64,000 bases of DNA from contig CAVZQC010000002.1 of assembly GCA_963777315.1 (NCBI GenBank), positions 96,001-160,000 on the forward strand, written 5' to 3'. Positions 19,850 through 63,928 of the stretch are shown here, in pieces. Under the pieces are notes generated by a model. The model was not told the DNA's origin. It made no database searches and saw only the letters and a program-made list of their open reading frames with translations. Made by a program: the position numbers and the translations under genes. Source of the DNA: Vulcanimicrobiota bacterium. Lineage in GTDB: Bacteria; Vulcanimicrobiota; Vulcanimicrobiia; Vulcanimicrobiales; Vulcanimicrobiaceae. Positions within the stretch are counted from its first letter, which is position 1. Each line of letters begins with the position of its first letter.

Positions 19850-20327
19850 TCACCGAAAATAGTTTTCCCAAAGTTCGTCGCCGCCGTAGTTTTGCCGTTG
19901 AATTGCAATCAGGTCGTTCAACCGCTTCCAAGCGCCGATAATCAGCGAGTGAAAGACGTCGTAGATGACATCGGAGTTTAGCAGCTTGTGCCGAACTAAT
20001 GCGCCAACCTCTTCGTACGTGTGCAGCAAGAATCGTTCTTTATGGACGGAAAAATCAAGATTCGAGACGTTTTCCGCGTCGCATCGGTAGCATTCGTCTC
20101 GTAACCGATCGCCGAGCTCGTTGAAAACGAAGTGCTGGGCTTCTTGAAACTGCCGGCTGCGAAAGATTTCGTAAACTTTCAGTGCCCCGTCGAGCTGCGT
20201 CGCACTCTGAAAATGCTCCAGCTGGCGATTCATTGCGCGCAGTCTGTCGAGATCCCACGACAACCGTGACGGCGATGACTACACCGGTAAACACCGTAGC
20301 GAGTGCACCGATCGCTTCCCATATCAT
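19850..20327 (-). CDS. DUF4760-like single-TM protein, +1 frameshift at about 20243
   Basis: TM MIWEAIGALATVFTGVVIAVTVVVGSRQ joins LRAMNRQLEHF..YEEVGALVRHKLL..WEN when one base in CAGACTG is removed. Confidence 0.6.
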
Positions 20328-20739
20328 TGGGAAATTGGATACCAGCGAGGAGCGATCAGTTCCTTGGATTATAGATTATGTTCTCCGCGAGCTGCGCGAA
20401 AGCGTTGGGCTCTCCAAAATGCCTGGTGTCGTCGACTCGGATATGGACATCGTGTCGGCCAACGTTTCGTTCTTTCGGTGAGAAGTTTGGCAAAATGAAT
20501 CTTGCGAACCGAAACGGTGGCTCGTCGCCACCGGCTTTTTTTGCAGCGTCTAAGGCGTCATCGGAAACGCCGAGGACGAAATCGGTCGACGCACTGTGCG
20601 CGTGCGAGATCGATTCGCAGCGGCCCAAGCGCTTCGCGAGCGAAGCAGCCGGTGCGGTCGACGAGCTTGCGCACCGCCGGCCAAGTAGGGTTGCCTCCCC
20701 ATACGCGCCTTAGAAAATGGACGCTATCATGGTTCTGCA

Positions 20740-22083
20740 ATGAATGTTTACTTTCGTATCATCCTTACCGTGACGCTCATTGGGTGCAGCCTCTGGGGGC
20801 TCGCTGTTCCGCACGCCTCTGCGGGTACGGACGGGGCTTTTCAGATCACGGCAAACCCCCACGGCGGCACCATCCTTACCGGAACCCTAGGGAGTTCGTC
20901 GCTCCCCGCCGCGACCGCCACGCTCATGCGCCGCGTCCACGCCGAGCTCGGCACGCGGCCGACGATTGTGCAGGTTGCACTGGACGCGCGCGATCGGTCG
21001 CTGGCGTTGCTCTTCACCGCTGCTCGCCGCGGGACGCGGTATACCGGCGTCGCGATCGTGACGGCGAGCGCGGGCGCGCAGGCCGCCGGTGCAGCGCTGT
21101 ACGATACCACGGCCCGTTTTCACTCGACGGTCGGTCCGATGATGCACCGACTTCAAGGAATGACCGTCCGACCGCCGTCCAGCGCCTCGAATCGGTCCAT
21201 ACGGTTTGCTCCGCCCGAGCCGCTGATCCCGCACGCCTTCGCCGACGGTACCGGAAGCATCGGCATCCCCGCGGACTGGTCGCTGACAGTCGCGGGCGGT
21301 GGCAGCGCAGCGGCGGTCGGGCCCGCCGGCGGAGCGCAGGTTTCGTACAACATGGCCTTTACCGGGATCGATCCTTCGAACCGGCGCGCGCAAATGTTCT
21401 TGCGAATGGGATCGCCCCTGCAACGTCAGAACCTGCACGGCGCCGTGCTGCCCTACACCGGCGATCCCGTCGGCTCTTGGAAAGCCATGTACACGGTCCT
21501 GGCTCAGCAGCGGGGGCTGCCTCAACCGCAGATTCACGTGATCAGCTCGACCTCGTCAGGTCAATCGGCCGCCGACATCACCGGAACGCTAGGCACCGGA
21601 CCCAAGATGATACACTTCATCGCGCACGTATTGGTGCTGCCGCCGAATCCTAACGGTATGTGGAAGCTCTCCGACAGCCATATCTTCGTAAAGGATGCGC
21701 AGCTGGCTAGACAGGCCGCGACCGCAAAAGCGGTGCTCGAGAGCGTGCGGATCAACTTCGGCGTCCTAGCCGCTCAAGAGGACGCGATTCGGCAAAGCTT
21801 CCAGCGGCAGTTCGAGGCGCAGATCGCCAACGACAGGGCGCTCGATGCGGCGCGCCAGCAGCGAACCGATGAAGCGCTGGCGTCCGACCGGGCGGCTCAA
21901 GAAGGCATGCACCGACAGGCCGTCGCTATGGAGAACTACTCGCTCGATCGTGCGGTCGTCGTCGACACGGCGACGGGGGTGCACAGCACCGTCGATTCCG
22001 GATTCGCGGCTACGCTCGTTCACGATAATCCGAACTATCAGCAGGTTCCCGCAGCCAACCTCCTACGCGGCGTCGACTACTAG
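20740..22083 (+). CDS. Secreted hypothetical protein with C-terminal Q/A/R-rich helix
   Basis: Signal peptide; 447-aa open frame with GC-rich third positions. Confidence 0.75.
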   Translation: MNVYFRIILTVTLIGCSLWGLAVPHASAGTDGAFQITANPHGGTILTGTLGSSSLPAATATLMRRVHAELGTRPTIVQVALDARDRSLALLFTAARRGTRYTGVAIVTASAGAQAAGAALYDTTARFHSTVGPMMHRLQGMTVRPPSSASNRSIRFAPPEPLIPHAFADGTGSIGIPADWSLTVAGGGSAAAVGPAGGAQVSYNMAFTGIDPSNRRAQMFLRMGSPLQRQNLHGAVLPYTGDPVGSWKAMYTVLAQQRGLPQPQIHVISSTSSGQSAADITGTLGTGPKMIHFIAHVLVLPPNPNGMWKLSDSHIFVKDAQLARQAATAKAVLESVRINFGVLAAQEDAIRQSFQRQFEAQIANDRALDAARQQRTDEALASDRAAQEGMHRQAVAMENYSLDRAVVVDTATGVHSTVDSGFAATLVHDNPNYQQVPAANLLRGVDY

Positions 22084-22087
22084 GAAC

Positions 22088-22795: not shown

Positions 22796-22820
22796 CCGGC
22801 GCTCACGGCACGGAGCTTTC

Positions 22821-22895
22821 TGGTAGCGCCAACGGGAATCGAACCCGTCTTTCCGCCTTGAAAGGGCAGTGTCCTAACCGATAGACGATGGCGCC
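22821..22895 (-). tRNA. tRNA-Glu (TTC)
   Basis: GGCGCCATCGTCTATCGGTTAGGAC..CT-TTC-AA..GGTTCGATTCCC..ACCA; cloverleaf with encoded CCA. Confidence 0.97.
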
Positions 22896-22906
22896 GCAAG
22901 GCGTCC

Positions 22907-23674: not shown

Positions 23675-23676
23675 CG

Positions 23677-24378: not shown

Positions 24379-26164
<1,786 letters not shown>

Positions 26165-26965: not shown

Positions 26966-27181
26966 TTATTTCACCACGCCTCCAAGCGCGATATTCGCAC
27001 CCTTGATCGCGGTTACGGCCGTGCCTTCCACGCCCCCGTCGATGCTCAGGCACAAATTCGACGCCGAATTCACGCTCGACGGTTTGGGAATCATCTTCGC
27101 CGTAACGCCGGCGTCCTTGAGCGTCTTGGTGGCGATCATGGTGTCGGCGTTGTTGGAGAAAAACAGGATGACGTCAGCCAC
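26966..27181 (-). CDS. DUF3343-like small protein
   Basis: ILFF...TM...K.LK..G....MIPKP..V...S.LCL pattern. Confidence 0.65.
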   Translation of the reverse strand: MADVILFFSNNADTMIATKTLKDAGVTAKMIPKPSSVNSASNLCLSIDGGVEGTAVTAIKGANIALGGVVK

Positions 27182-27184
27182 GGC

Positions 27185-28513
27185 TCATGCCTGCTTCGCA
27201 GAACCGCCGTGCACGAGCGTATCCAATCCGGACGCCACGTCGTTCAGCTCCGCAACGCGCGCCACGGCCTGCTGCAGTCGATCGCTCATCTCTTGGGACA
27301 GCGTATCGATGACGATCATGTCGCCGTGCAGTTCGTCGTTGACCGCGCGCAGCTGCGCGACCTTGGGAACGTCCGCGCCGGCATCGAGTTCGTCGATGAG
27401 CCGCCCCGCTCGTTCGACCGCCGCCTTGGTGGCCGCCACGTGATCGCCGGAAACTTCTCCCCCGACGATCGCAACGCCGAGCTCCTTGGCCGCCGCGCTG
27501 ACTTGTTCGCTGCGCTGGCCGATCGCTTTCGACAGGCGCTGCACGACCGGCACAGCCGCAACCAGCGCAATGAGCATGGCGACGAAGCCCCACAGCATGA
27601 ACGTTTCGGTCATGTGGTCGATGATCGCGGTGATCTGCGACATCGGCATGCCGTACCAGCGCGCACCGATCACGTTCTTCTGATCGTCGGTTATCGGGTC
27701 GAGCCGGGCAAGGTATACCGTGCCGCCTTCGCTGTCCGCGCCGACCCACGGTTTCGCGTCGGTCAGTGAAGCGAACCGCGAAACGCGCGTGTCGATCAGG
27801 CGCGTGCCGTCGGGCTGGCTGATCGTGCTCGAAACGATCGCATCCCCATCGAGCACCGCGGTTTGGCCGCCCAGCGCGCTTGTGCTTGCGTCAACCAAGT
27901 CGTAGAAATGGTTCATCAAAATGCCGCCGTAAATCGCTCCCAGCGTGCGTTCGTTTTGATCGCTCATCGGTGCCGCGGCAATCAACGCCAAGCCTTTGGA
28001 AACATGCTCGACGGTACTTTGTCCGCTTTTGACGTCGGCGTCGACCTGCGGCTGCAGGCCTTCTCCGGCCAGCTCGCCGGTCGGCATGATCACCGCGCTG
28101 CTGACCGTTTCACCCGTGAGCGCGCGCTGCACGTACGTATCGCCGGCCAGCGTTCCGCCCGTTCCGCCGTTTGCGCGGGCGACGACTTTCCCCGTGCCGT
28201 CCACCACGGTCAGGAAAGAAAGGCCCGACGTTCGCGCGATATTCGAGAGCTGGTCTTGCAGCGCCGCAGCATTTCGCGTTGCCAGATTTTTGCGCAACGC
28301 ATCGGAAACCGCGTCCTGGGCAAGCAGCAGCCGGATCTGATCTTTGCGCGAATCCCAGTATCCCGAGAACGCGTTCGAACTATTGGTCACCTGCGTGCGG
28401 CCCAAATCCATCAGGTCCCCCGCCAAGGTCAAGCGTGCTGCAACCACGCTGATGATAAAAAATAGGACCATGGCACCCACGATGGTGCCGAGCAGGCGAA
28501 CCCGCAAGCTCAT
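27185..28513 (-). CDS. Cache-domain membrane sensor with short MCP-like cytoplasmic coiled coil
   Basis: TM-Cache-TM (LSFLTVVD..G.VVAR, YLARLDPI...VIG..WYG) then about 110 aa helical tail without signalling tip. Confidence 0.75.
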   Translation of the reverse strand: MSLRVRLLGTIVGAMVLFFIISVVAARLTLAGDLMDLGRTQVTNSSNAFSGYWDSRKDQIRLLLAQDAVSDALRKNLATRNAAALQDQLSNIARTSGLSFLTVVDGTGKVVARANGGTGGTLAGDTYVQRALTGETVSSAVIMPTGELAGEGLQPQVDADVKSGQSTVEHVSKGLALIAAAPMSDQNERTLGAIYGGILMNHFYDLVDASTSALGGQTAVLDGDAIVSSTISQPDGTRLIDTRVSRFASLTDAKPWVGADSEGGTVYLARLDPITDDQKNVIGARWYGMPMSQITAIIDHMTETFMLWGFVAMLIALVAAVPVVQRLSKAIGQRSEQVSAAAKELGVAIVGGEVSGDHVAATKAAVERAGRLIDELDAGADVPKVAQLRAVNDELHGDMIVIDTLSQEMSDRLQQAVARVAELNDVASGLDTLVHGGSAKQA

Positions 28514-30150
28514 ACCGTTTCCCTTTCCGAACCCGTTTCGCTAACCTTGAATTGAGCCAGCCGGCCGTCGATGACGCCGGCGAAATCGTTCATCTGATTG
28601 ACTGAGGCCAGTATCCGCTGCGCGGCTCCCGTCACTTCCTGATTCACATAGGTGAGAACTTCGACCGACGAGGCGTTCTGCTGCGAAATTTCCGCTATGC
28701 TGCGGAACGCGGCATTGACTTCATCGGAGTGCGAGGACATCTGCTGGGTGGCTTGCACGTTCAGCTGCACGGACCGCGTGATCTCTTCGATCGAACGAAT
28801 GACCTGGTACGAATTGCTGCTCATCGCGCGCGCGACCGAAGATATCTCCGAGATCTGCTGATTGGCGCCCAGCACCGCCGAGACGATCTGGCGCAGCGCT
28901 CCCGAAGCCGAATTGGTTCCGTTCACGCCTTGCTCGACGCGTTCGGTGAGCTTGTCCATGGCGTTGACCACTTCGGTTATGACGTTTTGCGTCGAGACAA
29001 TGTGGCCGGCGATCTCTTTGGTCGCCTGAACGCTGCCGTCGGCGAGCTTGCGAATCTCCGTGGCGACGACCGCGAACCCGCGCCCGTGTTCGCCGGCGCG
29101 AGCCGCCTCGATGGCGGCGTTGAGCGCCAGCAAGTTGGTTTGCTCGGCGATGCGATCGATCACTTTGACGATGTCGCCGATCTGCTCGGAGTTGCTCCCC
29201 AGTTGGGAAATGTCGCCCGCGAGTTCGGAGATCGTGCTGCGGATCGTGTCCATGCCTTCGACGATCGTGTGGATGGCGCTGTCTCCGCGCTGCGCCGTGT
29301 GCGAAGTCTCCGTGGAGATCGACGATAGCGAGTCGACTTGCGCGGTCACCTGTTCGATCGAGGTCGCCATGTTCGTCACCGCGAGCGACGTCTCGTCGAG
29401 ACTGCGCGTCTGCTCCTCGGCGGCCGCCGCGATCGCGTCGATCGTTTCGGTGAGCTGCGCGACTTTGCGCGTGGCGTGCTCGACGATGCGGGACTGCTCG
29501 TTGATGCCGTCGTCGAGCTGTCCTTGGGCAACCGCAGCCCCTTCAATCACCGCCAGAGCCGTCGAAGCGGTCCCGTGCAGCTCGGTCCCTGCCGAACCGA
29601 GTTGCGCGTTGTTGCGATGCAGATTGTTCACGAACTCGCGCATGCCGAAGATCAGTTTGTTCAAGGCGATCGCGAGATCGTTGAGGGAATGATCCGAAAC
29701 GGCCAAATTTTTGGTAAAGTCGCCCTGCCAGACTTCGCGAATGCCCGCAGCCAGCGCCGCAATGGAACGTTCCAGCGCGAACGCAGTCGACGGACGGCTT
29801 TCGCCGGTCTTTGGGCGTGCGGCATCGTTCCCGGCGAATATGCACGCCATCCCCAGACCCACCGCTCCGAGCAGCAACGCCGAGCCCAGCGCCGCAGGCG
29901 AATGGTGCGCGCTGCGCCCCGTAAAATCGAGCGCCGCCACGACCAATGCCAGGACCGGAGCTGCCGGCATGCCCACCAGCACCGCAGCAATCGTGACCAG
30001 CGCGAGCGGAATCACTTCGAGTGCGCCGGCGCCGCTGCCATACCATACGCAAACGAAACAGGCGAGCGCGACAACTGTCGCGACGCCGATGCGAGGCATG
30101 GTCCCCAGACGCGAACGCCAAGCGGCGAGTCCGGCTTGAATCACTGGCAC
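28510..30150 (-). CDS. Methyl-accepting chemotaxis protein with multi-TM N-terminus
   Basis: IAEQTNLLALNAAIEAARAGEHGRGFAVVATEIRKLA tip motif; HAMP-like GDFT. Confidence 0.92.
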   Translation of the reverse strand: MPVIQAGLAAWRSRLGTMPRIGVATVVALACFVCVWYGSGAGALEVIPLALVTIAAVLVGMPAAPVLALVVAALDFTGRSAHHSPAALGSALLLGAVGLGMACIFAGNDAARPKTGESRPSTAFALERSIAALAAGIREVWQGDFTKNLAVSDHSLNDLAIALNKLIFGMREFVNNLHRNNAQLGSAGTELHGTASTALAVIEGAAVAQGQLDDGINEQSRIVEHATRKVAQLTETIDAIAAAAEEQTRSLDETSLAVTNMATSIEQVTAQVDSLSSISTETSHTAQRGDSAIHTIVEGMDTIRSTISELAGDISQLGSNSEQIGDIVKVIDRIAEQTNLLALNAAIEAARAGEHGRGFAVVATEIRKLADGSVQATKEIAGHIVSTQNVITEVVNAMDKLTERVEQGVNGTNSASGALRQIVSAVLGANQQISEISSVARAMSSNSYQVIRSIEEITRSVQLNVQATQQMSSHSDEVNAAFRSIAEISQQNASSVEVLTYVNQEVTGAAQRILASVNQMNDFAGVIDGRLAQFKVSETGSERETV

Positions 30151-30181
30151 CTCAACGGTTTCGGGTGGACCCCTATCCGAA

Positions 30182-30209
30182 TGTACGGCCCGATGCGCCG
30201 GAAAATTTA
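30182..30209 (-). promoter_or_regulatory. Candidate sigma-28 (FliA/SigD) promoter
   Basis: TAAA-N16-GCCGTACA upstream of the MCP gene. Confidence 0.45.
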
Positions 30210-30254
30210 GTCGGAGAGCGGAGTAGCGGCCTCAGGAGGCAAGCGTGCGCCCTT

Positions 30255-30789
30255 TTAACTACGGGCGCGGCTCCTGCGCTCGCATACTTCGCAAAAGTGC
30301 GGCATCTTGTTGTCGGTCTCGAAGATCGAATTCGAATAATACATCGCGCAGCGCGCGTTGTAGCAATGTTTGAGCCCGATGGCGTGGCCCAGATCGTGAA
30401 CGCACTCCTTGAGCGTGCGCTGAAACAGCTGATTGGGATCGGCGGCCTCGCCGTAGAATTCGCCGCGCAAGCGGTGCAGCGAAACGACTGCTATGCGCCG
30501 CTGCTCGTCCGCATCGCCGAAAATGTACCGGTGGGACGTCTTGTACAGGTCGAAATCGGTGATCGCGAGCAGCAGTCCGTCGCCGTCGGGGTATTCGCGC
30601 ATCACTCTGCCGGTCAGCGTCGAAACGAACAACTGCGCGCGCGTACCGTTCAGCGCGCTCTTCGGAACCGGGACGCTGCGCTGAACGGACACCGAATACA
30701 GGAACCGCTCTTCCAGACAGAGCCCCAAGCGTGCCAGGAACGCCGGGTCGATCGCATTGATCGGTACGATCCGCAGACTGCGTGTCCAT
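30255..30789 (-). CDS. Archaemetzincin-family Zn peptidase; +1 frameshift near start
   Basis: H(D)LGHAIGLKHC..RCAM..SNS..ETD.K...FC..C; removing one base at 30777 gives MDTQLRIVPIN. Confidence 0.85.
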
Positions 30790-30831
30790 CCTGGGGCGGT
30801 GTCTTTCGACGCGGACGCGAACGAGCCCCGC

Positions 30832-31197
30832 ATGATTCTCGGCATCGGCGTGGACCTGGCCGAAGTCGCGCGCTACCGCTTCGATCCGGCACAGCTCGCG
30901 TGGTTCGCGCGCAGAGTGTACACGGACTACGAGTTCGCGTATGCGGCGCGCAAGCGAAACCGCGCGGAGCGTCTGGCGGGATTCTTTGCCGCAAAAGAGG
31001 CGGCCCGCAAAGCGTTCGGCCATGCAATACCGTGGCGCGAAATCGGCGTATGGCACGAACGCAGCGGCAAACCCGTCATTCGACTGTACGGCAACGCCGC
31101 CGGACTGCTCGCGGCGCGCGCGATCGCGCGCATCCACTTAACGATAACGCATACCGAGTCGACCGCAGCCGCCGTTGTGGTTTTGGAAAGCGACTGA
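30832..31197 (+). CDS. acpS: Holo-[ACP] synthase
   Basis: MILGIGVDL, FAAKEA, SGKP, LTITH. Confidence 0.95.
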   Translation: MILGIGVDLAEVARYRFDPAQLAWFARRVYTDYEFAYAARKRNRAERLAGFFAAKEAARKAFGHAIPWREIGVWHERSGKPVIRLYGNAAGLLAARAIARIHLTITHTESTAAAVVVLESD

Positions 31198-32720
31198 TGT
31201 ACGTGCTCTCCCCGCAGCGCATGCGCGAGGCCGATGCGCAGGCGTGCGAACGCGTCGGGGACGTGGCGCTCATGCGCGCGGCGGGTGAAAGAATAGCCGA
31301 CGCGGCCAAGCGATACGCCAAGAATTCGCGCATCGTCGCCTTTGCCGGAAGAGGAAACAATGGCGGCGACGCGTTTGCGGCGCTCGCCATGCTGCCCACG
31401 TTCGAGCGCACGATCCATGCCCAGCCGGCGCAAGCGCCTTCGGCCGCTCGCCGCGATGCCGAGCAGCGCGCACGCGAGGCGGGCGTCACCGTCGCCCCTT
31501 TCCCCGATTCGGAATCGGCGGCCGCAGCCGCACTGCGCGAATGCGGGCTGGTCATTGTCGGATTGGTGGGAACCGGAGCGCGTTTGCCGTTGCGAGACGC
31601 CTACGCGCCCATCGTTGCCGCGATAAGCCGATCCGGTTTGCCGGTTCTTGCCATCGACATTCCACCGGGCGTGGACGCCTTGCGCGGCGTCGTGGTAGAG
31701 CCCGCAGTACGCGCCACGGTTACCGTGACGCTCGCAGCGCTCAAGCCCGGACTATTGCTGTCGCCCGCGCGCTCGCACGTCGGTGAATTGTGGCTGGCGG
31801 ACATCGGCATGCCTGCCGGCATTTTAGCCGCGCAGCCGCGAGAATTTGCAGCGCTCGACGACGACGCTTTCGCGCGGCTGCTTCCGCAGCGGGAAACCGG
31901 ATCGGATAAGCGCAGCGCGGGCGCGCCGCTGATCGTTGCCGGATCCGAACAGTTTCCCGGAGCAGCAGTGCTCAGTGCGATGGGCGCAGCTCGAGCCGGC
32001 GCGGGATACGTAACGGTTGCGGCTCCGCAAGGCGCCGCCGCCGCGCTGCGCGCCCACCTGATCGAGCAAGTCGTCGTGTCGATCGATCCGGCCCAAAGCG
32101 TCGACAATGCTGCGGAAGATCTGCTGGACGTTGCCAAGCGATGCTCGTCGATCGGCATCGGTCCCGGCTTGGCGCTCGACGATCGCACCGGTGCGATCGT
32201 GCGCGGCCTCATCGAAGCAACGGCTCTGCCGATCGTCGCCGATGCGGGCGCACTGTTTCATCTTGCCAAGCACTTGGATCCGCTGCGCGGCAAAAACATC
32301 GTCGTCACTCCGCACGAAGGCGAATTCGCGCGCCTGTCGGGCAAAGGCAGCATTCCGCCCGGTGAACGGGTGGAGCGCGTGCGGGAGTTCGTGGGACGCA
32401 CCGGCATCTGCACGCTGCTCAAGGGTGAATCGACGCTGGTCTACGACGGTACGACGATGCACATCAATACCACCGGAACGCCCGCGCTCGCCACCGCCGG
32501 CACGGGCGACGTCCTCACCGGAATCATTGCCACGCTGCTTGCGCAAGGGTTATCGCCCTTCGACGCTGCCCGCGCGGGAGCGTACTGGCATGGCCTGGCG
32601 GGCCGGCACGCCGCCACAGCCCGTTCTCGCGGCGTCATCGCACGCGACGTATACGATGCGTTGGGCGCTGCGCTGCCCAAAGGCCGCAACGAGAATGCGC
32701 CGTTAGTGCAGGTGTTTTAG
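31197..32720 (+). CDS. nnr: Bifunctional NAD(P)HX epimerase/dehydratase
   Basis: GNNGGD, GAAVL..GAG, VVTPH.GEF, LATAGTGDVL; TGATG overlap with acpS. Confidence 0.93.
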   Translation: MYVLSPQRMREADAQACERVGDVALMRAAGERIADAAKRYAKNSRIVAFAGRGNNGGDAFAALAMLPTFERTIHAQPAQAPSAARRDAEQRAREAGVTVAPFPDSESAAAAALRECGLVIVGLVGTGARLPLRDAYAPIVAAISRSGLPVLAIDIPPGVDALRGVVVEPAVRATVTVTLAALKPGLLLSPARSHVGELWLADIGMPAGILAAQPREFAALDDDAFARLLPQRETGSDKRSAGAPLIVAGSEQFPGAAVLSAMGAARAGAGYVTVAAPQGAAAALRAHLIEQVVVSIDPAQSVDNAAEDLLDVAKRCSSIGIGPGLALDDRTGAIVRGLIEATALPIVADAGALFHLAKHLDPLRGKNIVVTPHEGEFARLSGKGSIPPGERVERVREFVGRTGICTLLKGESTLVYDGTTMHINTTGTPALATAGTGDVLTGIIATLLAQGLSPFDAARAGAYWHGLAGRHAATARSRGVIARDVYDALGAALPKGRNENAPLVQVF

Positions 32721-33086
32721 CGAGCCGATCCGCACGGCGCTTCCACCGATCACCTTCCAGCCGGAGTCCTGCTTGAGCCAAATGCGCGTAAAGCGCAATG
32801 CCTGCTCCACGGCTTTGGTCGCTAAATCGATGCGGACGGTTACGACGACTGTGGGGCCGTAGTCGGCGATGCGCAGATCGCTGGTTGCATAACGAACGAA
32901 CTTGCGCGCGCCGGCCGGCCGGTGCGCTTCCAGAACCGCGGACTTGTGAATGATCGTTCCGTCGGGTCCCGTGAAGTAAAAGGCATCGTCAATCAGTGCA
33001 TCCAGCAGTTCGGGATCGGCCACGATGTCCGCCTGTTCGATCCGTTTTTCGAGATCACGGATCTCGTCTTGCGCAACGTCCGGCAT
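32703..33086 (-). CDS. NTF2-like DUF4440 protein
   Basis: LDALI.D.F.FTGPDG, RFTRIW.K...GWKV. Confidence 0.8.
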   Translation of the reverse strand: MPDVAQDEIRDLEKRIEQADIVADPELLDALIDDAFYFTGPDGTIIHKSAVLEAHRPAGARKFVRYATSDLRIADYGPTVVVTVRIDLATKAVEQALRFTRIWLKQDSGWKVIGGSAVRIGSLKHLH

Positions 33087-33088
33087 CG

Positions 33089-33597
33089 TTACGGCGACTT
33101 GTCCGAATAATACCGCAGCTGCGGCTCTATCGTTGCGTTCACAATGCGAATGATACCATATGAGTACCGCGGCTGAGTGCGTTTGTCGGTCGGCGAGCCC
33201 GGATTAAACAGCAGCACCCCGCCGTGCCAAGCGCAGTACGGCACGTGCGAGTGGCCGAACAGTATCGCGTCGACTTCCTCGTCTTTGAACGCGTTTTGCG
33301 CGCGTACGGGGGTCGAGCCGCCCGAACCGATGTCCCCGTGAACCATGCCGATTCGCACCCGGCCGATGGTAATGATCTTCTTGCGGCCCAGTCGTTCGAC
33401 CAATGCGGGCGGATCGTTATTGCCCGCGACCGCCTGCACGGGCGCGATCGCTTCGAACAGACGGATTGCCAATGCGTCCGTCATGTCGCCGCAATGCGCT
33501 ATTGCATCAACGCGGCTCTCTTGCAAACCGGCGCGCAGAGCAGCCGGAAGCGCCCTGCCGAAATGCGGCAAATGCGTATCGGAAACGACCCCGAGCG

Positions 33598-33616
<19 letters not shown>
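33089..33616 (-). CDS. YfcE-like metallophosphoesterase
   Basis: SDTH, HCGD, GNND, HG, FGHSH, NPGS. Confidence 0.9.
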
Positions 33617-35990
<2,374 letters not shown>

Positions 35991-35994
<4 letters not shown>

Positions 35995-36362
35995 TGCGCG
36001 GCGCGCCGGCTGCGGGGCGCGCTCATCACTTGGATGGGATACCCGTCCGGGTCGCCGATCACCGCAATGCGCCCGAACGCCTCATCGTAGGGATCCTGAA
36101 AGACCGGAACGCTCAACGACGCGCAGTCTGCGACGAACCGATCGACGTTGTCGACGGTGAACCCCAGCTGCAGCGAGCCGGGACGGACGGCGACCAGCTC
36201 GGTCTTGGGGTGGAGCACAAGCGTCGCGTCGTTGCCCAATTCGAACTCGGTCCAGTGCGGCGTCTTGTCGCTTTTGAGTTTGAGACCCAGCACGTCGCGA
36301 TAAAAATCGCGCGAGCGTTTGAGGTCTGCGCAGACCAGCATGGCCACCCAAAATTTCGTCAT
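35991..36362 (-). CDS. VOC/glyoxalase-family protein
   Basis: DFYRDVLGL, FTVDNVD, FGRIAVIGDPDG. Confidence 0.88.
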
Positions 36363-36369
36363 GCCGGGA

Positions 36370-39300
36370 TTAGGCTTTAACCAACTCTTCCAAAACGCGC
36401 ATGTTCTCGCGCTCCATCGCTTCGAGCGTTAGTGCGTTGGGCGGATGATGCCCGACCGCGCGCTGGTCGTCGAGCACCGGCACCAGATACCGGCCCGTGT
36501 ACGACGCCTCGTTTTGCGCAAGCTCCTCGGGAGTGCCCACGCCGACGACCGTCCCGCCGCGATCGCCTCCTTCAGGGCCCAGATCGATCACGTAATCGGC
36601 GGTTTTGATCACGTCCAGATTGTGCTCGATCACCAGCACCGTGTTGCCCGATTGCACCAAACGCTGCAGCACCTCGAGCAATTTATGGATGTCGGCGAAG
36701 TGCAAGCCGGTGGTGGGTTCGTCGAGCACGTAAAACGTGCGGCCGGTAGAACGGCGCGAGAGTTCGGTTGCAAGCTTGACGCGCTGCGCCTCGCCGCCCG
36801 AAAGCGTGGTGGCCGGCTGGCCCATCTTGATATATCCCAAACCGACGTCGCAAATGGTGCTCAATTTATTGTGGATGCGCGGGATCGCCGAGAAAAACGC
36901 GCTGGCCTCGTCGACGCGCATCTCGAGAACGTCGGAAATGGTTTTGCCTTTGTATTTGACCTCCAGCGTCTGAGAGTTATAGCGTTTGCCTTTGCAGACT
37001 TCGCACGGTACGTAAACGTCGGGCAGAAAATGCATCTCGATTTTGATGATTCCATCGCCTTGACACGCCTCGCAGCGGCCGCCTTTGACGTTGAAGGAAA
37101 ATCGGCCCGGAGTATATCCTCGCATCTTGGCCTCGGGCACCATCGAAAACAGCTCGCGAATCAAATCGAACGTGCCCGTGTACGTCGCGGGATTGCTGCG
37201 CGGAGTTCGTCCGATCGGCGATTGGTCGATCACCACCATCTTGTCCAGCTGCTCGACGCCTTTGACGCTGCCGTAGGTTCCGGCCGCGGGCTGACCGTGC
37301 AGATATTGATTGAGCGCTCTGACCAAAACCTGGTTGACCAAAGTGGACTTGCCGCTGCCGCTGACTCCGGTCACGCAGCCGAGCACGCCGATGGGAAAGT
37401 CGACGTCGATTCCCAGCAGGTTGTTGGCTTTTGCGTTCTTGACTTTGAGCCAAGCGCGGGGCGCGCGGCGCCGTTTGGGAATCGGAATGAACTTTCGCCC
37501 CGAGATGTACGCACCGGTCTCGGATTGCGGATCGGCGACGACGTCGTCCAGCGTTCCTGCCGTGAGAATGTACCCGCCTTCCGCCCCTGCTCCGGGCCCG
37601 ATGTCGACGACGACGTCGGCGGTGCGGATGGTGTCCTCGTCGTGCTCCACGACGATCAGCGTGTTTCCCAAGTCGCGCAACGTGCGCAGCGTAGCTAAAA
37701 GCCGTTCGTTGTCGCGCTGATGCAGTCCGATCGAAGGCTCGTCCAAAATATACAGCACGCCCACGAGCGAACTGCCGATTTGAGTGGCCAGCCGGATGCG
37801 CTGCGATTCGCCGCCCGAAAGCGTCGTCGCGGATCGCCCAAGCGTGAGATAATTCAACCCGACGTTGCTCAGAAAGCCCAGCCGGGCCCGAATCTCTTTG
37901 AGCACTTGATGCGCGATCTGCTCTTCTCGGGGGTTTGGAGCGAAGTCGTTGAAAAACGCTTCGCACCGTTCGATCGACATGCGCGTGAGCCGATCGATGT
38001 TCGCACCGCCCACGGTAACGGCCAGCGCCTCCGGCTTGAGTCGCGCGCCTTTGCATTGCGGGCACGTCGAGGCAGACATGAACTTTTCGATGTCTTCCTT
38101 GACGTATTCGCTCGAGGTCTCGCTATGCCGGCGTTCGAGATTGTTGATGACGCCTTCAAACGTCGAACGGTATTCCCATACTTTGCCCGCACGCGATTCG
38201 TAGGAGAAATTTTGTTCGCGATCCGTCCCGTACAGGATGATGTCCACGACTTCGTCCGGCATCTTGTCGATCGGCGTGGTGGTTCGTACCCGGTACTTGC
38301 GCAGTACGCGTTCGAGCTGCTGCAGATAGTACGGGTTCATCGACGGGAAGCGCCCGCTGCCCAGCGACTTGCTCCAGGGCACGATCGCGCCCTCGTCTAT
38401 CGATTTGCCGCGGTCCGGAATCACTTTCCACGGATCAATCTCGACCTTCTCCCCCAAACCGCTGCAGCCGGGGCAGGCGCCGTACGGCGAGTTGAACGAA
38501 AACAGGCGCGGCGCGAGCTCTTCGAACGACAGGCCGCACTCCACGCACGCGAATGCTTCGCTGAACGTCAGTTCCCGCGTGCCGCTCGAGTCCTCGACCA
38601 GGGCGGTCACGATCCCGGTCGAGAGCCGCAACGTCGTTTCGACCGAATCGCCCAGCCGTTTGCGAATGTCCGGCTTCATCACCAAGCGGTCGACGATCAC
38701 CTCGATCGTATGCTTGCGCTTTTTATCGAGCGCGATCTTCTCGCGCAGCTCTTTGGTTTCGCCGTCGACGCGGACGCGCGAAAATCCCTCCTTTGCGATC
38801 TCTTCGAACAACTTCGCGTACTCGCCCTTGCGGCCGCGCACGAGCGGAGCGAGCAGCTGAATGCGCGAGCCTTCCGGCAGTTCCATGATGGAATCGAGGA
38901 TCTGCTCGCTGCTTTGCGAGCTGATCTCGCGTCCGCACTGATAGCAGTGCGGCACGCCGATGCGCGCGAACAACAGCCGCAAGTAGTCGTAGATCTCGGT
39001 TACGGTTCCGGCCGTCGAACGAGGATTGCGCGAGGTAGACTTCTGGTCGATCGAGATCGCGGGTGAGAGTCCCTCGATGTAGTCGACGTCGGGTTTTTCC
39101 ATCTGGCCCAGAAACTGGCGCGCATACGACGACAGCGACTCGACGTAGCGGCGCTGGCCTTCGGCGTAGATCGTGTCGAAGGCAAGCGAGGATTTGCCCG
39201 ATCCCGACAGGCCGGTAATGACGATGAGGCGGTTGCGGGGAAGGACCAGATCGACGTTTTTGAGATTGTGCTCGCGCGCGCCCTTGATGACGATGGAATC

Positions 39301-39375
39301 GAGCCCGCGCGGCATCGCGACGCCGTCGCGAGCCGGAGGGATGGGCGCGCCGGGAATCTGGTCGTAGGGCGGCAT
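36370..39375 (-). CDS. uvrA: Excinuclease ABC subunit A
   Basis: GAREHNLKN, two Walker A (GSGKS), two LSGGE, Zn fingers. Confidence 0.98.
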
Positions 39376-39427
39376 GCTTAGGTATGTAACACGCCGCTGC
39401 GGCGAAATGTTTCCTTCCGCTTACGAG

Positions 39428-40204
39428 CTAGACCGACGAGTACGGCGGAGATTCCGGCGGCGGCGGTGCTGCTCCGGCGGTGCCGACGCCGGAGGTGAGC
39501 TTGATGTATTCTCCGACGATCACCAACGTAGCGTACGCCGCGACGATCTGCACGATCAGCTGGCGAATCACCATTCCCAACAGCGGGATCCCTCCGAAGA
39601 ACCGCGCGATCCATCCGCCGAGCACGAACGCGATCGCCAGCACGATGACGATGCCCAACGTTGCCAGGAAATTCTTGGTCGTGATGCGCGCCGATTCGGC
39701 CAAAGCTTCGGTAGCGGTGCGATTGCCGACGATCACGCTGGGAAGCGCATACAGAAAGAAGAGATAAAACGCGAGCAGCGCCAGCCCGAGCGTCGGAACG
39801 GAAAGCGCAACCGCCGCGATGCCCAAAAGAAAAAGCAGGACGACGGCGACGAATATCTGGCCGCCTTCGGTCCGGAATGCCGTCGAGCCGTCTTCGAGGG
39901 TTGCTTTTCCGGTGCGCCAAGCAGCGCCGGCCATCCCGGTCGTATACGCAATGACCAGAATGGTGGCCAGCATCAGCACGACCCCGACGATCAGCGCGCT
40001 CAGGAACGCCGACAGCACGCCGACGCCGCCCATGCCGACCGCCGTAAGGCCGACTGCCGAAGCGACGCCGTACAGCGCGAGCAGCCAAACGACGATCGCC
40101 GCGAGAATCCCGATGACGACCCCCGGGACGATGAGGATCCAGTTGCCGGTCAGCAGTTGCCACGCCCGGCCGAACGTGTTGCCGAAGTCTTGCGAGACTT
40201 GCAT
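39428..40204 (-). CDS. Hypothetical multi-pass membrane protein with Pro-rich tail
   Basis: About 6 TM; GGAGG RBS before ATG 40204. Confidence 0.8.
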   Translation of the reverse strand: MQVSQDFGNTFGRAWQLLTGNWILIVPGVVIGILAAIVVWLLALYGVASAVGLTAVGMGGVGVLSAFLSALIVGVVLMLATILVIAYTTGMAGAAWRTGKATLEDGSTAFRTEGGQIFVAVVLLFLLGIAAVALSVPTLGLALLAFYLFFLYALPSVIVGNRTATEALAESARITTKNFLATLGIVIVLAIAFVLGGWIARFFGGIPLLGMVIRQLIVQIVAAYATLVIVGEYIKLTSGVGTAGAAPPPPESPPYSSV

Positions 40205-40255
40205 ACGAAACCTCCAAAGCGCCAAGAGACGTTGACCTAAGTTCCTTCGCTGCGA

Positions 40256-44110: not shown

Positions 44111-44113
44111 TCA

Positions 44114-46160: not shown

Positions 46161-46275
46161 CGCTTTTCTTCGACATAGCCCGGACGTTGCGGGTTGCGTT
46201 CGGGCAACCGCGAGGGTTGCGCGCGCAAGCGCGGGAACCTCATGGTCCGCCCGCCCACGTCTGGAGATTCGCCCC

Positions 46276-47301
46276 TTGAGCCACAACCCGTTACTCTTCA
46301 GCGGCAACTCGAACCAACGGCTGGCCGAGGAGATCGCCAAACGGCTCAAGCTGCACGTGGGCAAAGCGCTGGTCTCCAAGTTCAGAAACGAAGAAACGCG
46401 CGTGCAGATCGGCGAGAATGTGCGCGGCTCGGAAGTCTTCGCCATTCAGTCGCTGTGCAAATCGCCCGGCGGCAACGGCGTGAACGATTCCCTGATGGAG
46501 CTGCTGCTGATGATCGATGCGCTCAAGCGCGCCTCCGCAGCTCGCATCACCGCCGTCATTCCGTACTACGGTTATGCCAAGCAGGACAAAAAAACGACCG
46601 GGCGCGAGCCGATCTCGGCCAAAGTCGTCGCGGACATGCTCAAGACCGCCGGCGCAAACCGCATGGTCACCATGGACCTGCACGCCGCGCAGATTCAGGG
46701 GTTCTTCGACGGGCCCGTCGACAATTTGATGGCGATGCCCACGCTGTGCAACTATCTTAAGAAGGACGGTCTGTGCGAGGACCGCGTCGTGATCGTTTCA
46801 CCGGATGCGGGCGGAGTGCATCGCGCCGAACTGTTCGCCAAACGGCTGAACTCGTCGCTCGCGATCGTCTTCAAGCGCCGTCCTGAACCCGACGTCTCCG
46901 AGGTTACCGACATCGTCGGCGACGTCGCCGGCAGAGTGGCGGTGGTCGTCGACGACATGATCTCCACGGGCGGCACGCTTGCCAAAGCCGCCGAAGCGAT
47001 CATCGCGCGCGGCGCCACGCGCGTGTACACCGTTGCATCGCACGGCATCTTTGCGGGCGACGCCATCCGCGTTCTGGACGAGTCCCGAATCGAACGCGTC
47101 GTGGTCACCAACACGATCCCGTTCCCCGACGTTTCCGAGCATCCCAAGTTCGTGCAGCTGTCGATCGCGCAAACGTTCGCCGATGCGATCAATCGCATTA
47201 CGACCAACCGATCGATCTCCGAGCTCTTCACCGATGAAGGTGAAGAAAAAAAGTTGAATGACGCACCCCGCCCTATGCCGGAACCGGCAATCGTACCGTA
47301 A
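46276..47301 (+). CDS. prs: Ribose-phosphate pyrophosphokinase
   Basis: [35 protein letters not shown]. Confidence 0.97.
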
Positions 47302-54492: not shown

Positions 54493-57142
54493 TTGGGCCA
54501 GCGCAAGCAGCATCGTGCGGGAAGCGAGGTCGAATTCGACGTAGCCACACTGCCGGAGGTGCCCATTCTCTCCACCCGCTTGATGCGTTCGCGCGTCAAC
54601 GAGCGCCTCGAGCGCGCTACCAGATTTCCCGTAACGCTGATAGCTGCGCCCGCGGGCTTCGGCAAAAGCGTCGCGCTGCGCGATTTCGCCGATACTTCGC
54701 GCCTGGACGCCGTTCGTTACGACGTTCACCGCGAGGACGGTACGCTGCTTGCCTTCGTTCGCCGTCTGAGCGAAACGCTCAAGCCGGTCGCGCCCAGCGC
54801 GATTGCGGCGTTCCCCGCGATACACGAACGCGTGCTTGCCGCCGACGAGCCCGTGCTTCGGCTGTCGGATTGGTTCTTCGAGCATCTCAGGCGCGTCGTC
54901 TGCACCATCGTCATCGACGATTTGCATTACGCTGCCGTCGACCGAGCGTCGATCGCGCTTTTGGCCGATTTGATCGAACGTACGACCGATCGCATTCGCT
55001 GGATCATCGCCGCACGCAGCGACGTGGGCCTTCCGGTTGCCAGCTGGATCGCGTACGGCCGCATGGATATGCCCATCGGCGAAGACGATCTGCGTTTCAC
55101 GATCGACGAAGCACTGGCAAGCGCGGATGCAGCGGCTGCCGATCTGGACCCGCACGAGATCGAAGCGCTCTGCGACTTGACCGAAGGCTGGCCGGTAGCT
55201 CTAGCAATCGCGCTGCGCACGCGCACGTACGCGGCCGATCTGCTTAGCGCGTCCTCCGGCACGCGCGAGATGGTCTACAGATATCTCGCCGAGCAGGTTT
55301 TTGCGGGATTGACGCCCGACCAGCGCGCCTTCGTGCTGGCGACGTGCGTATTTTCGACGTTCAACGCAACGATCGCGCAAACGCTGGGAGCGAGCCCGGA
55401 CGTTCTGTCCGACATACGCTCGAAAGTCGCTTTCTTAAACGAGATCGGTCCCGCCGAATACCGGTATCACGATCTCTTCCGGGATTTCTTGGAAGCGGAG
55501 TTGCGCCGCCGCGGCGAGGGCGACTGGACGCGCGCGGCGCGCCGGGGAGCCGAGCTGTTGGAACAGCGGGGCGACGACGCCGGCGCGCTCGTTTTGTACG
55601 CCAAAGCCGGTGAATCGCAGGCATTGCTGCGCATCGTGGATCGCAAGGGCTTTTCGATGTTCGAGCACGGTCAAAGCGAAGCGCTCAGCGCGGCTCTCGA
55701 CGCGATACCGGACGAGCTCAAACAGGCCGATGCGGCTGCGCTGGGATTGCGCGCGACGATCGAGGCCAGCCGCGGACGCTTTGAATTGGCGCAACGCGGC
55801 TTCATCACGGCGATAGACAAAGCCGGCGATCCGGACCTTCGAACCGCACTCGTGCACCGGTATGCCATCGAGCTCGTGCGGCACGATCGCGACTGCGTGG
55901 GTTTTTTGGAGCCGTACGCGAAGGATGGGACGCTCTCGGACGAGCAGCGCGTGCCGCTGCTGGGCACACTCGCAACCGCGTATCTGGCGGCGAACCGGTA
56001 CGCAGACGCGCTGGCGACGATCCAGCGAGCGCTGGATGCGATCGATCCGTCGATGAACGCCGAGATGCTCGCGCGTCTGTATCAGCAAGCCGCCTACATC
56101 CACGATTTCGGGCCCGAGCGCGAACGCGCCAGAACGTACGCTGCGCTGGCAATCGAGCTGGCGCTTCCGCGCAACCTGTTCGACGTGGCAGCGCGCGCCT
56201 ACAGCGCGCTGTTCAGCGTGGCGTACAACGAGGACGACGATCCGATCGCGTGTTTGAAGATTCTCGACAAGCTCGACGAATGCGCGCGCAAAGGCGCCGG
56301 AAACCAGGCGCGCGTGTTCGCGCTCATGGCCGCATACGAGCTGGAAGTCGAACGCGGCGACGATGCCGCGCTCGAGCGTTTGGACAGCGCGCTGCACGAA
56401 AACCAGGCGGCACTTCCGCGCGCGCGTTCGGAAACGTTCCTGCCGGCCGACGCACTGCGGGCGGCGTGGGTCGGCGATTTCAAGCGCGCGCTGCAGCTGC
56501 TCGCCGGCACGGCCGAACAGTTCTCCAGCGACGAACGGCGCGCGCTGCGCGCTGCAGAAATTGCGCTGTACGCCTTCGCGTGCGCAGACGGCGATCGGGG
56601 CGCGGCTGCTTTGGAGCAGGCAGAGGCCGCGCTCGAACGCTGCACGCGCGAAACGCGCCGAACGATTCGCTCGCGCATCTTCATCGCGCTGGCCGAGATG
56701 CTGCGCGGGCATTCCAGCGCGGCCAACCGCCACTTGACCCAAGCCGAACGCGCGCTCACCCCGCAAATGCGCCGAGTCCGCGCCTTGGCGCACGCCGCCA
56801 GAGCGTTGTATCGCGTCCAGCTCAATCAAGCGGATCGGGCCGCGCGTTCGGGAGTTCTGGAACGCTTGCGGGCCGAGCATTTCGGCGGGATAGCGCGCCT
56901 GATCGAGGCGCTGCCGTTCTCGGCGGATTCGGGCCAAGGCTACGGAACGCTCACCGCGGCCGAGCGCGAAATTCTCCAACTGCTCGCAAGGGGCGGCAGC
57001 ACGAAAGACGTGGCGGCCCGAACCGGCCGCAGTCCGCATACGGTCGATACGCACATTCGCTCCATCTGCCGCAAGCTCGCGTGCAGCGGCCGGCGCGAAG
57101 CCGTCGCGTTCAGCTACCAGCCAAGGCTGGGTACAGACCTAG
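54493..57142 (+). CDS. MalT-like STAND ATPase-TPR-LuxR regulator (start uncertain; +1 frameshift at about 57111)
   Basis: APAGFGKS, IDDLH, LRFT..EA, EGWP, YRYHDLFRDFL, LuxR HTH; corrected end AVALATSQGWVQT*. Confidence 0.9.
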
Positions 57143-57177
57143 AGCTTTTTCGCTGTTGCGGCTCTCGGGGAGAAGCG

Positions 57178-58374
57178 ATGTTTGTCTATCGGTGCGCATT
57201 GGTTCTCGCGTGCATCGGACTTGCGGCGTGCAGTGCGCAGCAGCGCGGCGGGGTGATCCCCGCGTCCCCCGCTTCCGGGCCGCGAACGGTCATGGACAGC
57301 CCCAGCGCTCTGCCGGGCGACAGCCCGAGCGCGCTGCCCGGAGATAGTCCGTCGGCTTTGCCGGGCGCCCAGCTCGGGTGCGATCTCACCTTCGAGGCCG
57401 ATCAGGCGAACTGCACGGTCGCGATCAACATCACCGTTCCGCCCGTGAGCGATGCGACCACGCCGGCCAATCTGCTATCGGGCTTGCATCCTATAGATTT
57501 GCGCGCGCGTTACGGGTTGCCGGTATGGCCTGCGCGGGGTGCCGTCGCGATCGTCGACGCTTACGACGATCCGCAGGCCGAGCTCGATTTGGCCGTGTAT
57601 CGCGCCGCGTTCGGCCTTGCGCCCTGCACGTCGCTCAACGGCTGTTTCCGCAAGGTCAATCAACGGGGCGCGGCGGGACCGTACCCGGCAGCCAACCTGG
57701 GCTGGGACGAAGAGATCTCGCTGGATTTGGACATGGTTTCGGCTGCATGTCCGGATTGTTCGATAGTTCTGGTGGAAGCCGATTCGGCGTCGTTCGATGA
57801 TTTGGGCAGCGCGGTCGATGCAGCGGCGCTCATGCGCCCGGCAGCAATTTCCAACAGCTACTACGGCCCCGAGTGGTCGGGCGAACGCGCGCTGGACAAG
57901 CATTACCGGCATAGCGGCATAGCAATAACCGTCAGCGCCGGCGATCAGGTCAGCCCGTTCTATCCCGCCGTATCGCCGTACGTAACCTCCGTCGGCGGCA
58001 CCACGCTTTCGCAGAGCGGCGGGTCATGGAACGAAACCGCGTGGCAATACGGCGCGCGAGGCTGCAGCCGCTTCGAACCCAAGCCGAATTGGCAGGGCGT
58101 CACGGGATGCCGCACCCGCGCCATGACCGACGTCGCCGCAGTCGCGGATCCGCAAACCGGTGTCGCGATGTACGATTCAACCGCCGGCGGCTGGGTCGTG
58201 ACGGGCGGCACGAGCGTCGGTGCGCCGCTGCTCGCAGCCGCATACGCGTTATCGTGGAACCCCAGAGATCCCGCGTATTCATACCGGCATCCCTCGGCAT
58301 TTCACGATATCGCTCCGGCAGGCTACGATCCGGCGACCGGCCTGGGATCGCCCAACGGTCTGGGCGGCCTATAG
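57178..58374 (+). CDS. S53 (sedolisin-like) peptidase lipoprotein
   Basis: LAAC lipobox; EISLD, SAGD, GGTS catalytic motifs; YDPATGLGSP; GGGAG RBS. Confidence 0.88.
   Translation: MFVYRCALVLACIGLAACSAQQRGGVIPASPASGPRTVMDSPSALPGDSPSALPGDSPSALPGAQLGCDLTFEADQANCTVAINITVPPVSDATTPANLLSGLHPIDLRARYGLPVWPARGAVAIVDAYDDPQAELDLAVYRAAFGLAPCTSLNGCFRKVNQRGAAGPYPAANLGWDEEISLDLDMVSAACPDCSIVLVEADSASFDDLGSAVDAAALMRPAAISNSYYGPEWSGERALDKHYRHSGIAITVSAGDQVSPFYPAVSPYVTSVGGTTLSQSGGSWNETAWQYGARGCSRFEPKPNWQGVTGCRTRAMTDVAAVADPQTGVAMYDSTAGGWVVTGGTSVGAPLLAAAYALSWNPRDPAYSYRHPSAFHDIAPAGYDPATGLGSPNGLGGL
57295..57366 (+). repeat. 3 x 24-nt tandem repeat encoding DSPSALPG
   Basis: GACAGCCCCAGCGCTCTGCCGGGC / GACAGCCCGAGCGCGCTGCCCGGA / GATAGTCCGTCGGCTTTGCCGGGC. 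Confidence 0.95.
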
Positions 58375-61608: not shown

Positions 61609-61635
61609 ACTCGTGCGCGCCGGGTGCTTTTGCGC

Positions 61636-62049
61636 CTACGTGACCAATTCACGGCGTTTGCCGCATTCGCGTTCCACGAATGAAACGATCTGCGAAAGCG
61701 GCGCGCCCGGCGTGAAGATCTCTTTGACGCCGCGTTCGCGCAGCGCCTGGGCGTCTTCGGGCGGAATGGTGCCGCCGCCGAAAAACACGATGTCCTGCGC
61801 GCCTTGCGCGCGCAGCTGGTCGACGACCAGCGGGAACAGCGTCATGTGGGCGCCCGAAAGGATCGATAGACCGATGCCGTCGGCGTCTTCCTGAACGGCC
61901 GTTTGCACGATCTGCTCGGGCGTTTGGAACAGGCCGGTATAAATGACTTCCATGCCGGCATCGCGCAGCGCGCGGGCGATGACCTTGGCTCCGCGGTCGT
62001 GCCCGTCCAGCCCCGCTTTGGCGATGACGACGCGCAGCGGTCTAGCCAT
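61636..62049 (-). CDS. Cobalamin-binding small subunit of acyl-CoA mutase (IcmB-like)
   Basis: [17 protein letters not shown]. Confidence 0.92.
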
Positions 62050-62212
62050 CGAGTTCGCTGCGCGAAGCCGGGGCGAACGGCGACGGACATTCGTCGCGAT
62101 CGCTGCGGTGTTCCAACTCCTCGGCCAGCCGTTGCGCTTCTTGGAGCTTTTCCTTGACCACCCGCAACGTCGCCGACGCCGCCTGCCGCTGCTGCTCGCT
62201 GTGAATGCGCAT
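62042..62212 (-). CDS. Small 56-aa helical protein (below the ORF-track cutoff)
   Basis: [56 protein letters not shown]; fills the gap exactly. Confidence 0.6.
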
Positions 62213-62214
62213 CG

Positions 62215-63928
62215 TTAAAACGCCGGTCGCTCGGTGTAGCGGCCGTATACCTCGACCATGGCCGACGCGATCTCGCCTTCGGTGGCGTAAGCGTTCACGC
62301 AGTCGATCAGATGCGGCATCAAATTGTCCTGCGGATCCCTGCAGGCCGCCTTGAGCCGGTCCAGCGCATTCTGCAGCGCCGTCCCGTCGCGCCGCGCCCG
62401 CACGGCCTGCACCGAATCGGCTTGATCGCGCTCGACGTGCTCGGCAATCCGCAGCAGATCGATGCCCGTGCGGTCTTCGGGTTTTTCGAACGCGTTCACC
62501 CCCACGACGATGCGGTCTTTGGTTTCCAGCGAGCGCTGATAGCGATAGCTCGCATCGGCGATCTCGCGCTGGAAAAAGCCGGCCTCGATCGCTTCGATGA
62601 CGCCGCCGTACTCGTCGATCTGCTTGAAGTACTCCTCCGCGCCTTGCTCCATCCGATCGGTCAGCGCTTCGACGTAGTACGATCCTCCCAGCGGATCGAC
62701 CACGTTGGTGACGTTGGTTTCATACGCGAGCACCTGCTGGGTGCGCAGGGCGATCTCCACGGACTTTTCCGTGGGGAGCGCGAGAACTTCGTCCATCGAG
62801 TTGGTGTGCAGCGACTGCGTGCCGCCGAGCACCGCCGCCATGGCCTCGTACGCAACGCGCACGATGTTGTTTTCCGGCTGCTGCGCGGTCGCGCTGCACC
62901 CCGCGGTTTGCGTGTGGAAACGCAGTCTGCCACGAGCGCGGGTCCTTCGCGCCGTACCGTTCGCGCATGTGGCGGGCCCAAATTCGGCGCGCGGCGCGAT
63001 ACTTGCAGATCTCTTCGAAGAAATCGATGTGGGCGTTAAAGAAAAACGACAGGCGCGGGGCGAACGAATCCACCTCCATACCGGCCTTCACGCCCGCTTC
63101 CACGTACGCGAATCCGTCGGCCAAGGTAAACGCGAGCTCTTGCACCGCGGTCGAGCCGGCTTCGCGAATGTGGTAGCCGCTGATCGAAACAGTGTTCCAT
63201 TTCGGCATTTGATCGCGGCAAAAGCGCATCATGTCGACGATTACGCGCATGTGAGGGCGCGGCGGAAAAATCCACTCTTTTTGCGCGATGTATTCCTTGA
63301 GGATGTCCGCCTGGATCGTCCCGCCGAGTTTGGCGCGCGGAATGCCTTTCTTTTCGGCCGCCGCGACGTACTGCGCCAGCGCGATGCACGCCGGGCCGTT
63401 GATCGTCATCGACGTCGTGATGTCGGCCATGTCGATTCCGTCGAACAACGTTTCCATGTCGGCGAGGGAATCGATGGCCACGCCGCACTTGCCGACTTCG
63501 CCGCGCGCTTGGCGCGAGTCGGAATCGTAGCCCATGAGCGTTGGCATGTCGAAGGCGACCGAGAGCCCGTGCTGGCCGTGCGCGAGCAAAAAGTGATAGC
63601 GCTCGTTGGTCTGCGCGGCATTGCCGAAGCCCGCGAATTGGCGCATCGTCCACAGCCGGTCGCGATACATGTTCGGGTGGATCCCGCGCGTGTACGGATA
63701 CAGCCCGGGCCAGCTCAGATCGTGCGCCAAATCGAGGTCGGCGACGTCTTCGGGACCGTAGATCGCGTTCACGTTCAGGTCCGAAATGGTGCGGTCCACC
63801 GCGCGCGAGCCGGCGCCTTTGCGGCGCGTGCCCTTGGCGGAAGCGGCCTCCCACTGTTCCTTTTCGTGAATGAATTCGTTAGTCGGCTGCGCCCCCAAAC
63901 CGCTGGGACGCTGGATCATCTTGGCCAA
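62215..63928 (-). CDS. icmA: B12-dependent acyl-CoA mutase large subunit, isobutyryl-CoA mutase-like (+1 frameshift at about 62926)
   Basis: [44 protein letters not shown] restored by removing one base. Confidence 0.8.

Follow-up and report, generated by a model that had tools for sequence, protein, structure and literature searches.

In a 64,000-nucleotide stretch of a Vulcanimicrobiota genome (G000:C2:96001-160000, hereafter the window), six genes are each thrown out of frame by one surplus base at the four-letter word AGCT. As far as sequence can tell, these bases are almost certainly errors of the assembly rather than mutations. The explanation that we hold overall, with good confidence, is that AGCT carries N4-methylcytosine (m4C) from an enzyme encoded at C4:926000-926989, and that the basecaller misreads the modified word and leaves extra bases that survive in the assembly. 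Artefacts of this class are already known and the pattern is real but artefactual; what appears to be new is a named candidate enzyme that persists genus by genus within a bacterial family.

The genome under study (G000) measures 2.83 Mb in 6 contigs of up to 936 kb, with a GC content of 62-63% and an assembly completeness of 90%; judging from its few, long contigs, we take it to be a long-read consensus. Its sister genome and congener G001 is 93% complete, and 2.57 of its 3.0 Mb were used in the DNA comparison. Positions given below without a contig name are window positions. The six sites are the following:

20243, minus strand: extra base inside AGCT, in a DUF4760-family gene at about 19850-20327 (frame test, Pfam)
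30777, minus strand: extra base inside AGCT, in the archaemetzincin (Peptidase_M54) gene 30255-31027 (intact AGCT in G001, no extra base in the relative G011)
35095, minus strand: extra base abutting AGCT, in ligA 33972-35994, splitting the adenylation domain (alignment to five relatives, Pfam)
44210, minus strand: extra G inside AGCT, in the last part of uvrB, whose gene start is at 46445 (alignment to relatives)
57111, plus strand: extra C abutting AGCT, in the final codons of a MalT/LuxR-type regulator running from 54493 to its true stop at 57140-57142 (alignment to relatives)
62926, minus strand: extra base inside AGCT, in the acyl-CoA mutase large-subunit gene 62215-63928 (alignment to G011, Pfam)

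All six bases listed in the initial annotation are present. Five of them (30777, 35095, 44210, 57111 and 62926) stand as one surplus base against relatives in DNA alignments, and the sixth, at 20243, follows from frame logic. The form AG[T/A/G]CT occurs at four sites, and AGCT is abutted at the other two (35095 and 57111). At 62926 the surplus is seen against G011; G001 has an extra base of its own there, A instead of T. When the extra base is dropped, the open frame after the site grows from 20 to 374 amino acids (aa) in ligA and from 68 to 236 aa in the mutase gene, and both proteins show their domain in two frames (PF01653 positions 2-231 and 230-253 in ligA; PF01642 positions 1-291 and 310-512 in the mutase). 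The gain is smaller in uvrB (15 to 31 aa), where the extra G changes only the last ~30 residues. Reading through to the stop extends the DUF4760 frame from 62 to 130 aa. Site 20243 is nevertheless the weakest of the six, because it was judged by the frame test only, with no relative's DNA compared, and its Pfam match becomes only slightly longer (profile positions 30-134 to 22-134).

The extra C at 57111 shifts the last ten codons of the LuxR-type gene and removes its stop, at the point where the LuxR-type protein ends in G001 and G011. Read against these relatives, the 1293-aa open reading frame (ORF) at 54493-58374 on the plus strand is a false fusion of the regulator with the downstream subtilase gene. 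The extra base annotated here thus stands, with a corrected consequence: the gene lies on the plus strand, loses its stop and runs into the subtilase gene. Counting all AGCT sites in the window gives 6 hit and 207 intact, in agreement with the genome-wide rate.

Enrichment of frameshifts at AGCT

Alignment of G000 with G001 covered 1.94 Mb at 76% identity, and the broken genome at each isolated insertion or deletion was assigned by the phase of third-position mismatches. This procedure assigned 119 of 531 non-triplet events to G000 and 227 to G001, while the 185 left unassigned were dropped; duplicates were merged afterwards. In G000, 53 of the 61 phase-called +1 events either restore AGCT or stand directly beside it (36 inside the word and 17 next to it), where 5.7 would be expected; 200 random control sets gave at most 11, and AGCT is first among all 4-mers. 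The same pattern is found in G001 (101 of 147, 12.2 expected), so that the genome-wide enrichment suggested as a check in the initial annotation is indeed there. Omitting the phase filter gives 78 of 137 events in G000 (12.7 expected) and 141 of 228 in G001 (20.4 expected). The commonest form is AG[T/A]CT, with 28 of the 53 G000 events; 18 -1 events in G000 were listed only.

Two further comparisons point the same way. A reference-free scan with a codon model ranks AGCT highest in each of the two genomes (57 of 138 peaks, 27.3 expected, and 54 of 142, 26.9 expected); it recovered one of the six window sites and was left out of the counts. In 60 kb of G011, 8 of 18 distinct +1 positions restore AGCT, which, as a figure obtained without control or phase test, is only a hint.

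Taken as excess over 2753 and 2353 intact callable sites, the fraction of affected AGCT sites comes to about 2.3% in G000 and 4.9% in G001. Extrapolation to the 8214 AGCT of G000 gives about 190 wrong sites, a quality warning for a reference genome, in which they produce spurious pseudogenes and one or more spurious gene fusions; the same probably holds for related genomes assembled from long reads.

To follow the affected genes, 48 of the 53 matching G001 frames were scanned against NCBIfam, and secA, secY, dnaE, valS, ftsH, guaA, map and pyrB were among them. These eight genes and ligA each lie in two pieces in different frames in G000, with no second close copy, and all nine are essential or nearly so. 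The extra bases are best read as errors because about 2% of AGCT sites are hit, including those in single-copy ligA, secA, secY, dnaE and valS. The proposal in the initial annotation that the genes are intact and the frameshifts are motif-linked consensus errors is therefore well supported, by the genome-wide enrichment, by the splitting of essential single-copy genes and by the like behaviour of the sister genome. In life, the genes are very probably intact.

A candidate AGCT methyltransferase

The search for an AGCT methyltransferase that the initial annotation called for, none being seen in the window, yielded a candidate outside it: a gene for a beta-class N6/N4 methyltransferase (PF01555) at G000:C4:926000-926989. 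It is one of five DNA methyltransferase loci in G000:

C2:858.5 kb (C2:858500-859570): C5 methyltransferase with Vsr, Dcm-like, in a low-GC island
C4:926 kb: beta-class N6/N4 methyltransferase
C5:146 kb: type I-like methyltransferase
C6:17 kb: Eco57I-like methyltransferase
C2:532 kb: Dam-like methyltransferase

The beta-class gene is the only one of the five with a match in the 2.57 Mb of G001 compared. Its product aligns with ADE36743.1 of Methanohalophilus mahii DSM 5219 (named 'Type II methyltransferase') at 56% identity and 75% positives over 331 aa. Table S3 of Blow 2016 gives M. mahii DSM 5219 three enzymes, two of type I and one of type II, the latter being M.Mma5219II, a type II m4C enzyme with target AGCT, detected at 96.2% and without a cognate nuclease; M.MhuIV is entered likewise (PMC4752239). 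By elimination, ADE36743.1 would be M.Mma5219II. M. mahii is also included in HG16, a kind of orphan AG(m4C)T enzyme described as persistent in Methanoculleus and in the Methanoregula/Methanospirillum group (PMC10609329), and the archaeal taxa among the best 80 of 321 homologous loci are those of HG16, namely Methanoculleus, Methanoregula, Methanospirillum and Methanohalophilus.

No restriction endonuclease lies beside the G000 gene, which is flanked by genes for an M48 peptidase and for an alpha/beta hydrolase; nucleases elsewhere were not searched for. In the four relatives scanned, the neighbours are Lhr, kinases, LigB and one ORF without assignment. The methyltransferase gene is itself frameshifted in two relatives: directly beside an AGCT in G001, and within a few bases of such a word in G011. 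Members of the enzyme family, at 56-68% identity, are found in Vulcanimicrobiota, Methanomicrobiales, Methanohalophilus, Anaerolineae, Neomarinimicrobiota and some Clostridia, a spread that suggests transfer between domains, for which we claim no direction. In a quick midpoint-rooted tree of 34 rows, which has no true root, the Vulcanimicrobiota copies form their own branch (SH-aLRT, the Shimodaira-Hasegawa-like approximate likelihood ratio test, 92).

These data lead to a proposed mechanism in which an orphan beta-class enzyme would convert the central C in each strand of AGCT to m4C. The basecaller would then misread the word in its modified form, and the consensus would retain a surplus base at about 2% of AGCT sites, with the gap between G and C (AG[T/A]CT) as the commonest place. 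Survival likely reflects the marking of the palindrome on both strands, with reads of both directions filling the same gap, T in one and A in the other. We infer methylation in the organism, its chemistry, the platform and the signal mechanism from assembled letters. That modification at AGCT causes the errors is very likely; that it is m4C written by the C4:926000-926989 enzyme is, from homology and distribution, probable.

Of the modification claimed in the initial annotation, left there between m5C (5-methylcytosine, AluI-like) and m4C, the modification is upheld and m4C is favoured, because G001 shows the same errors without a C5 match and the shared enzyme is close to PacBio-matched AG(m4C)T enzymes. 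A different modification of AGCT, such as m5C from the Dcm-like C2:858500-859570 enzyme, N6-methyladenine (m6A) or the product of an unassembled enzyme, is improbable. G000 does encode a C5 methyltransferase beside a Vsr endonuclease, its assembly is only 90% complete, and bacterial AG(m5C)T enzymes exist (entries in PMC4752239). However, G001 has stronger AGCT errors and no C5 match at 93% completeness, the C5 gene of G000 sits in a low-GC island, and within the family the error word goes with the beta-class gene. The C5 enzyme was accordingly disfavoured as the writer; no C5 methyltransferase was found in the whole G001 assembly, nor in G011 or G015. The low-GC island itself (G000:C2:854000-874000, 52-58%) holds the Dcm-like enzyme, Vsr and a large ORF without assignment, and looks like a mobile defence island.

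The family comparison covered 141 published genomes, with ten unpublished ones left out, and the beta-class gene is present in 30 of them, G000 included. Where genera were sampled it is all-or-none (g7 4/4, g27 4/4, g57 4/4, g51 3/3, g82 3/3). As a signature of the errors we counted the error word VAGTCTG and divided by the count of its reversed control, in assemblies of few contigs (20 or fewer) or many (50 or more), setting apart 11 genomes with 30-40 contigs. With the gene, the median ratio is 1.33 at few contigs (n=11) and 1.01 at many (n=16); without it, the medians are 0.84 (n=40) and 0.90 (n=63). The error word is thus up only where the gene and a near-complete assembly coincide, and contig cut-offs of 10 and 100 give the same picture. 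Within genera, all four that bear the gene shift upward in few-contig assemblies, and the 13 without it show mixed signs. An earlier tally of CAGTCTG over 31 relatives was set aside because kinship confounded it.

This distribution bears on a second alternative, that AGCT is error-prone for the basecaller or polisher whatever its methylation and that the methyltransferase is coincidental. We regard it as quite implausible, because the error word is raised only with the gene and few contigs: in the 40 few-contig genomes without the gene it does not rise. Finally, real insertions, through a motif-directed mutational or recoding process that adds a base at AGCT or through decay of the strain, are scarcely credible: both G000 and G001 have an extra base at the orthologous mutase site, but its letter differs (T in G000, A in G001) and G011 has none, nine single-copy genes, most of them essential, would have to be out of action together, and among gene-bearing genomes the error word is scarcer in fragmented than in near-complete assemblies.

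Several observations weigh against m4C from the C4 enzyme as the source of the errors. Not all +1 events are at AGCT (8 of 61 in G000 and 46 of 147 in G001 are elsewhere). In the family, the within-genus contrast is marginal (p about 0.05, 4 versus 13 genera), the comparison is one of word counts alone among kin that are not independent, with contig number as a proxy for platform, and G006 has the gene in a one-contig assembly with a ratio of 0.90, which is not raised. A split uvrA was seen in none of the 10 other gene-bearing few-contig genomes (an underpowered test in 151 genomes), and some genomes without the gene had uvrA split. Public runs X1, X2 and X3 were compared with window 27001-46999 and speak neither for nor against: among the matches listed, X1 gave eight perfect ones of 151-388 bases, none across a site, and X2 and X3 matched only other organisms. 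As for the enzyme, in the alignment DPPY precedes its S-adenosylmethionine (SAM)-binding motif, and this motif and the source names point to 'adenine-specific'; ADE36743.1 has the same DPPY motif. ADE36743.1 is tied to M.Mma5219II by elimination rather than through a locus tag, and specificity could differ at 56% identity.

Features outside the error pattern

The initial annotation had counted a seventh error in the archaemetzincin gene, whose zinc motif HDLGH is one substitution from HELGH. This candidate was rejected:

30393-30395, minus strand: Asp codon of HDLGH, a real variant outside the error pattern

HDLGH occurs in 5 of 14 family genomes (G000, G001, G011, G010 and G017) and HELGH in the other 9. 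The Glu-to-Asp change is real because two of those five, G010 and G017, have no match to the methyltransferase and 60 and 270 contigs, respectively. The catalytic Glu of the zinc motif thus appears to be replaced by Asp in several lineages, and the HDLGH protein may be a weakened or non-catalytic variant.

Elsewhere in G000, a selenocysteine tRNA is predicted at C2:721981-722074, and ARAGORN found no tmRNA in the six contigs. The most avoided 5-mer is TGACA/TGTCA (observed/expected 0.36), and the 666 remaining sites show no flanking preference; a regulator site or a restriction target are our guesses for this avoidance. A short repeat containing TGACA is present in several hundred copies in G001 (GGTGACA 501 times, against 46 in G000). 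It is probably a palindromic element, rare or absent in G000, which we take to be REP-like (repetitive extragenic palindromic).

Relation to known systems

The analysis predicts that these uncultured soil bacteria carry m4C at AGCT, from a named orphan enzyme that is near archaeal ones and that several genera carry in every member sampled. A further idea, which we offer tentatively and consider somewhat doubtful, is that in this Vulcanimicrobiaceae branch an HG16-like orphan AG(m4C)T enzyme is kept to set a lasting epigenetic mark that extends through whole genera and serves a housekeeping or regulatory purpose, as proposed for the archaea, and that the frameshift spectrum reads the methylome. 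If true, the frameshift spectrum of public long-read assemblies would show the methylome without raw signal.

Among known systems with the same four-base target, the AluI-type AG(m5C)T restriction-modification system requires both a C5 methyltransferase and a nuclease. Here, on the other hand, the enzyme shared by G000 and G001 is not of the C5 type, and G001 has no C5 match.

Modification-mediated systematic nanopore errors have been published (PMC10687267, Chiou 2023; PMC11610603; PMC11610573, Lohde 2024), and the errors described here resemble them in gathering at one motif, here presumably methylated, and surviving into the consensus. Amplification or reference polishing removes the published errors (PMC10687267, PMC11610603). 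These two accounts stress substitutions (C-to-T, G-to-A, mismatches), whereas here we find +1 insertions at a predicted m4C palindrome; AGCT is absent from the main text of both. Among the top matches of a literature search, which did not extend to subscription papers, bioRxiv supplements or REBASE, we found no report of AGCT insertion errors or of a Vulcanimicrobiota methylome.

The closest counterparts are the published archaeal AG(m4C)T orphan enzymes (PMC10609329, PMC11033074). Like M.Mma5219II, M.MhuIV and HG16, the G000 enzyme has a PF01555 domain, full-length similarity at 56% identity, no adjoining restriction partner, an all-or-none distribution by genus and AGCT as the implied target. 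Unlike HG16, its host is bacterial, and the Vulcanimicrobiota copies stand on a branch of their own.

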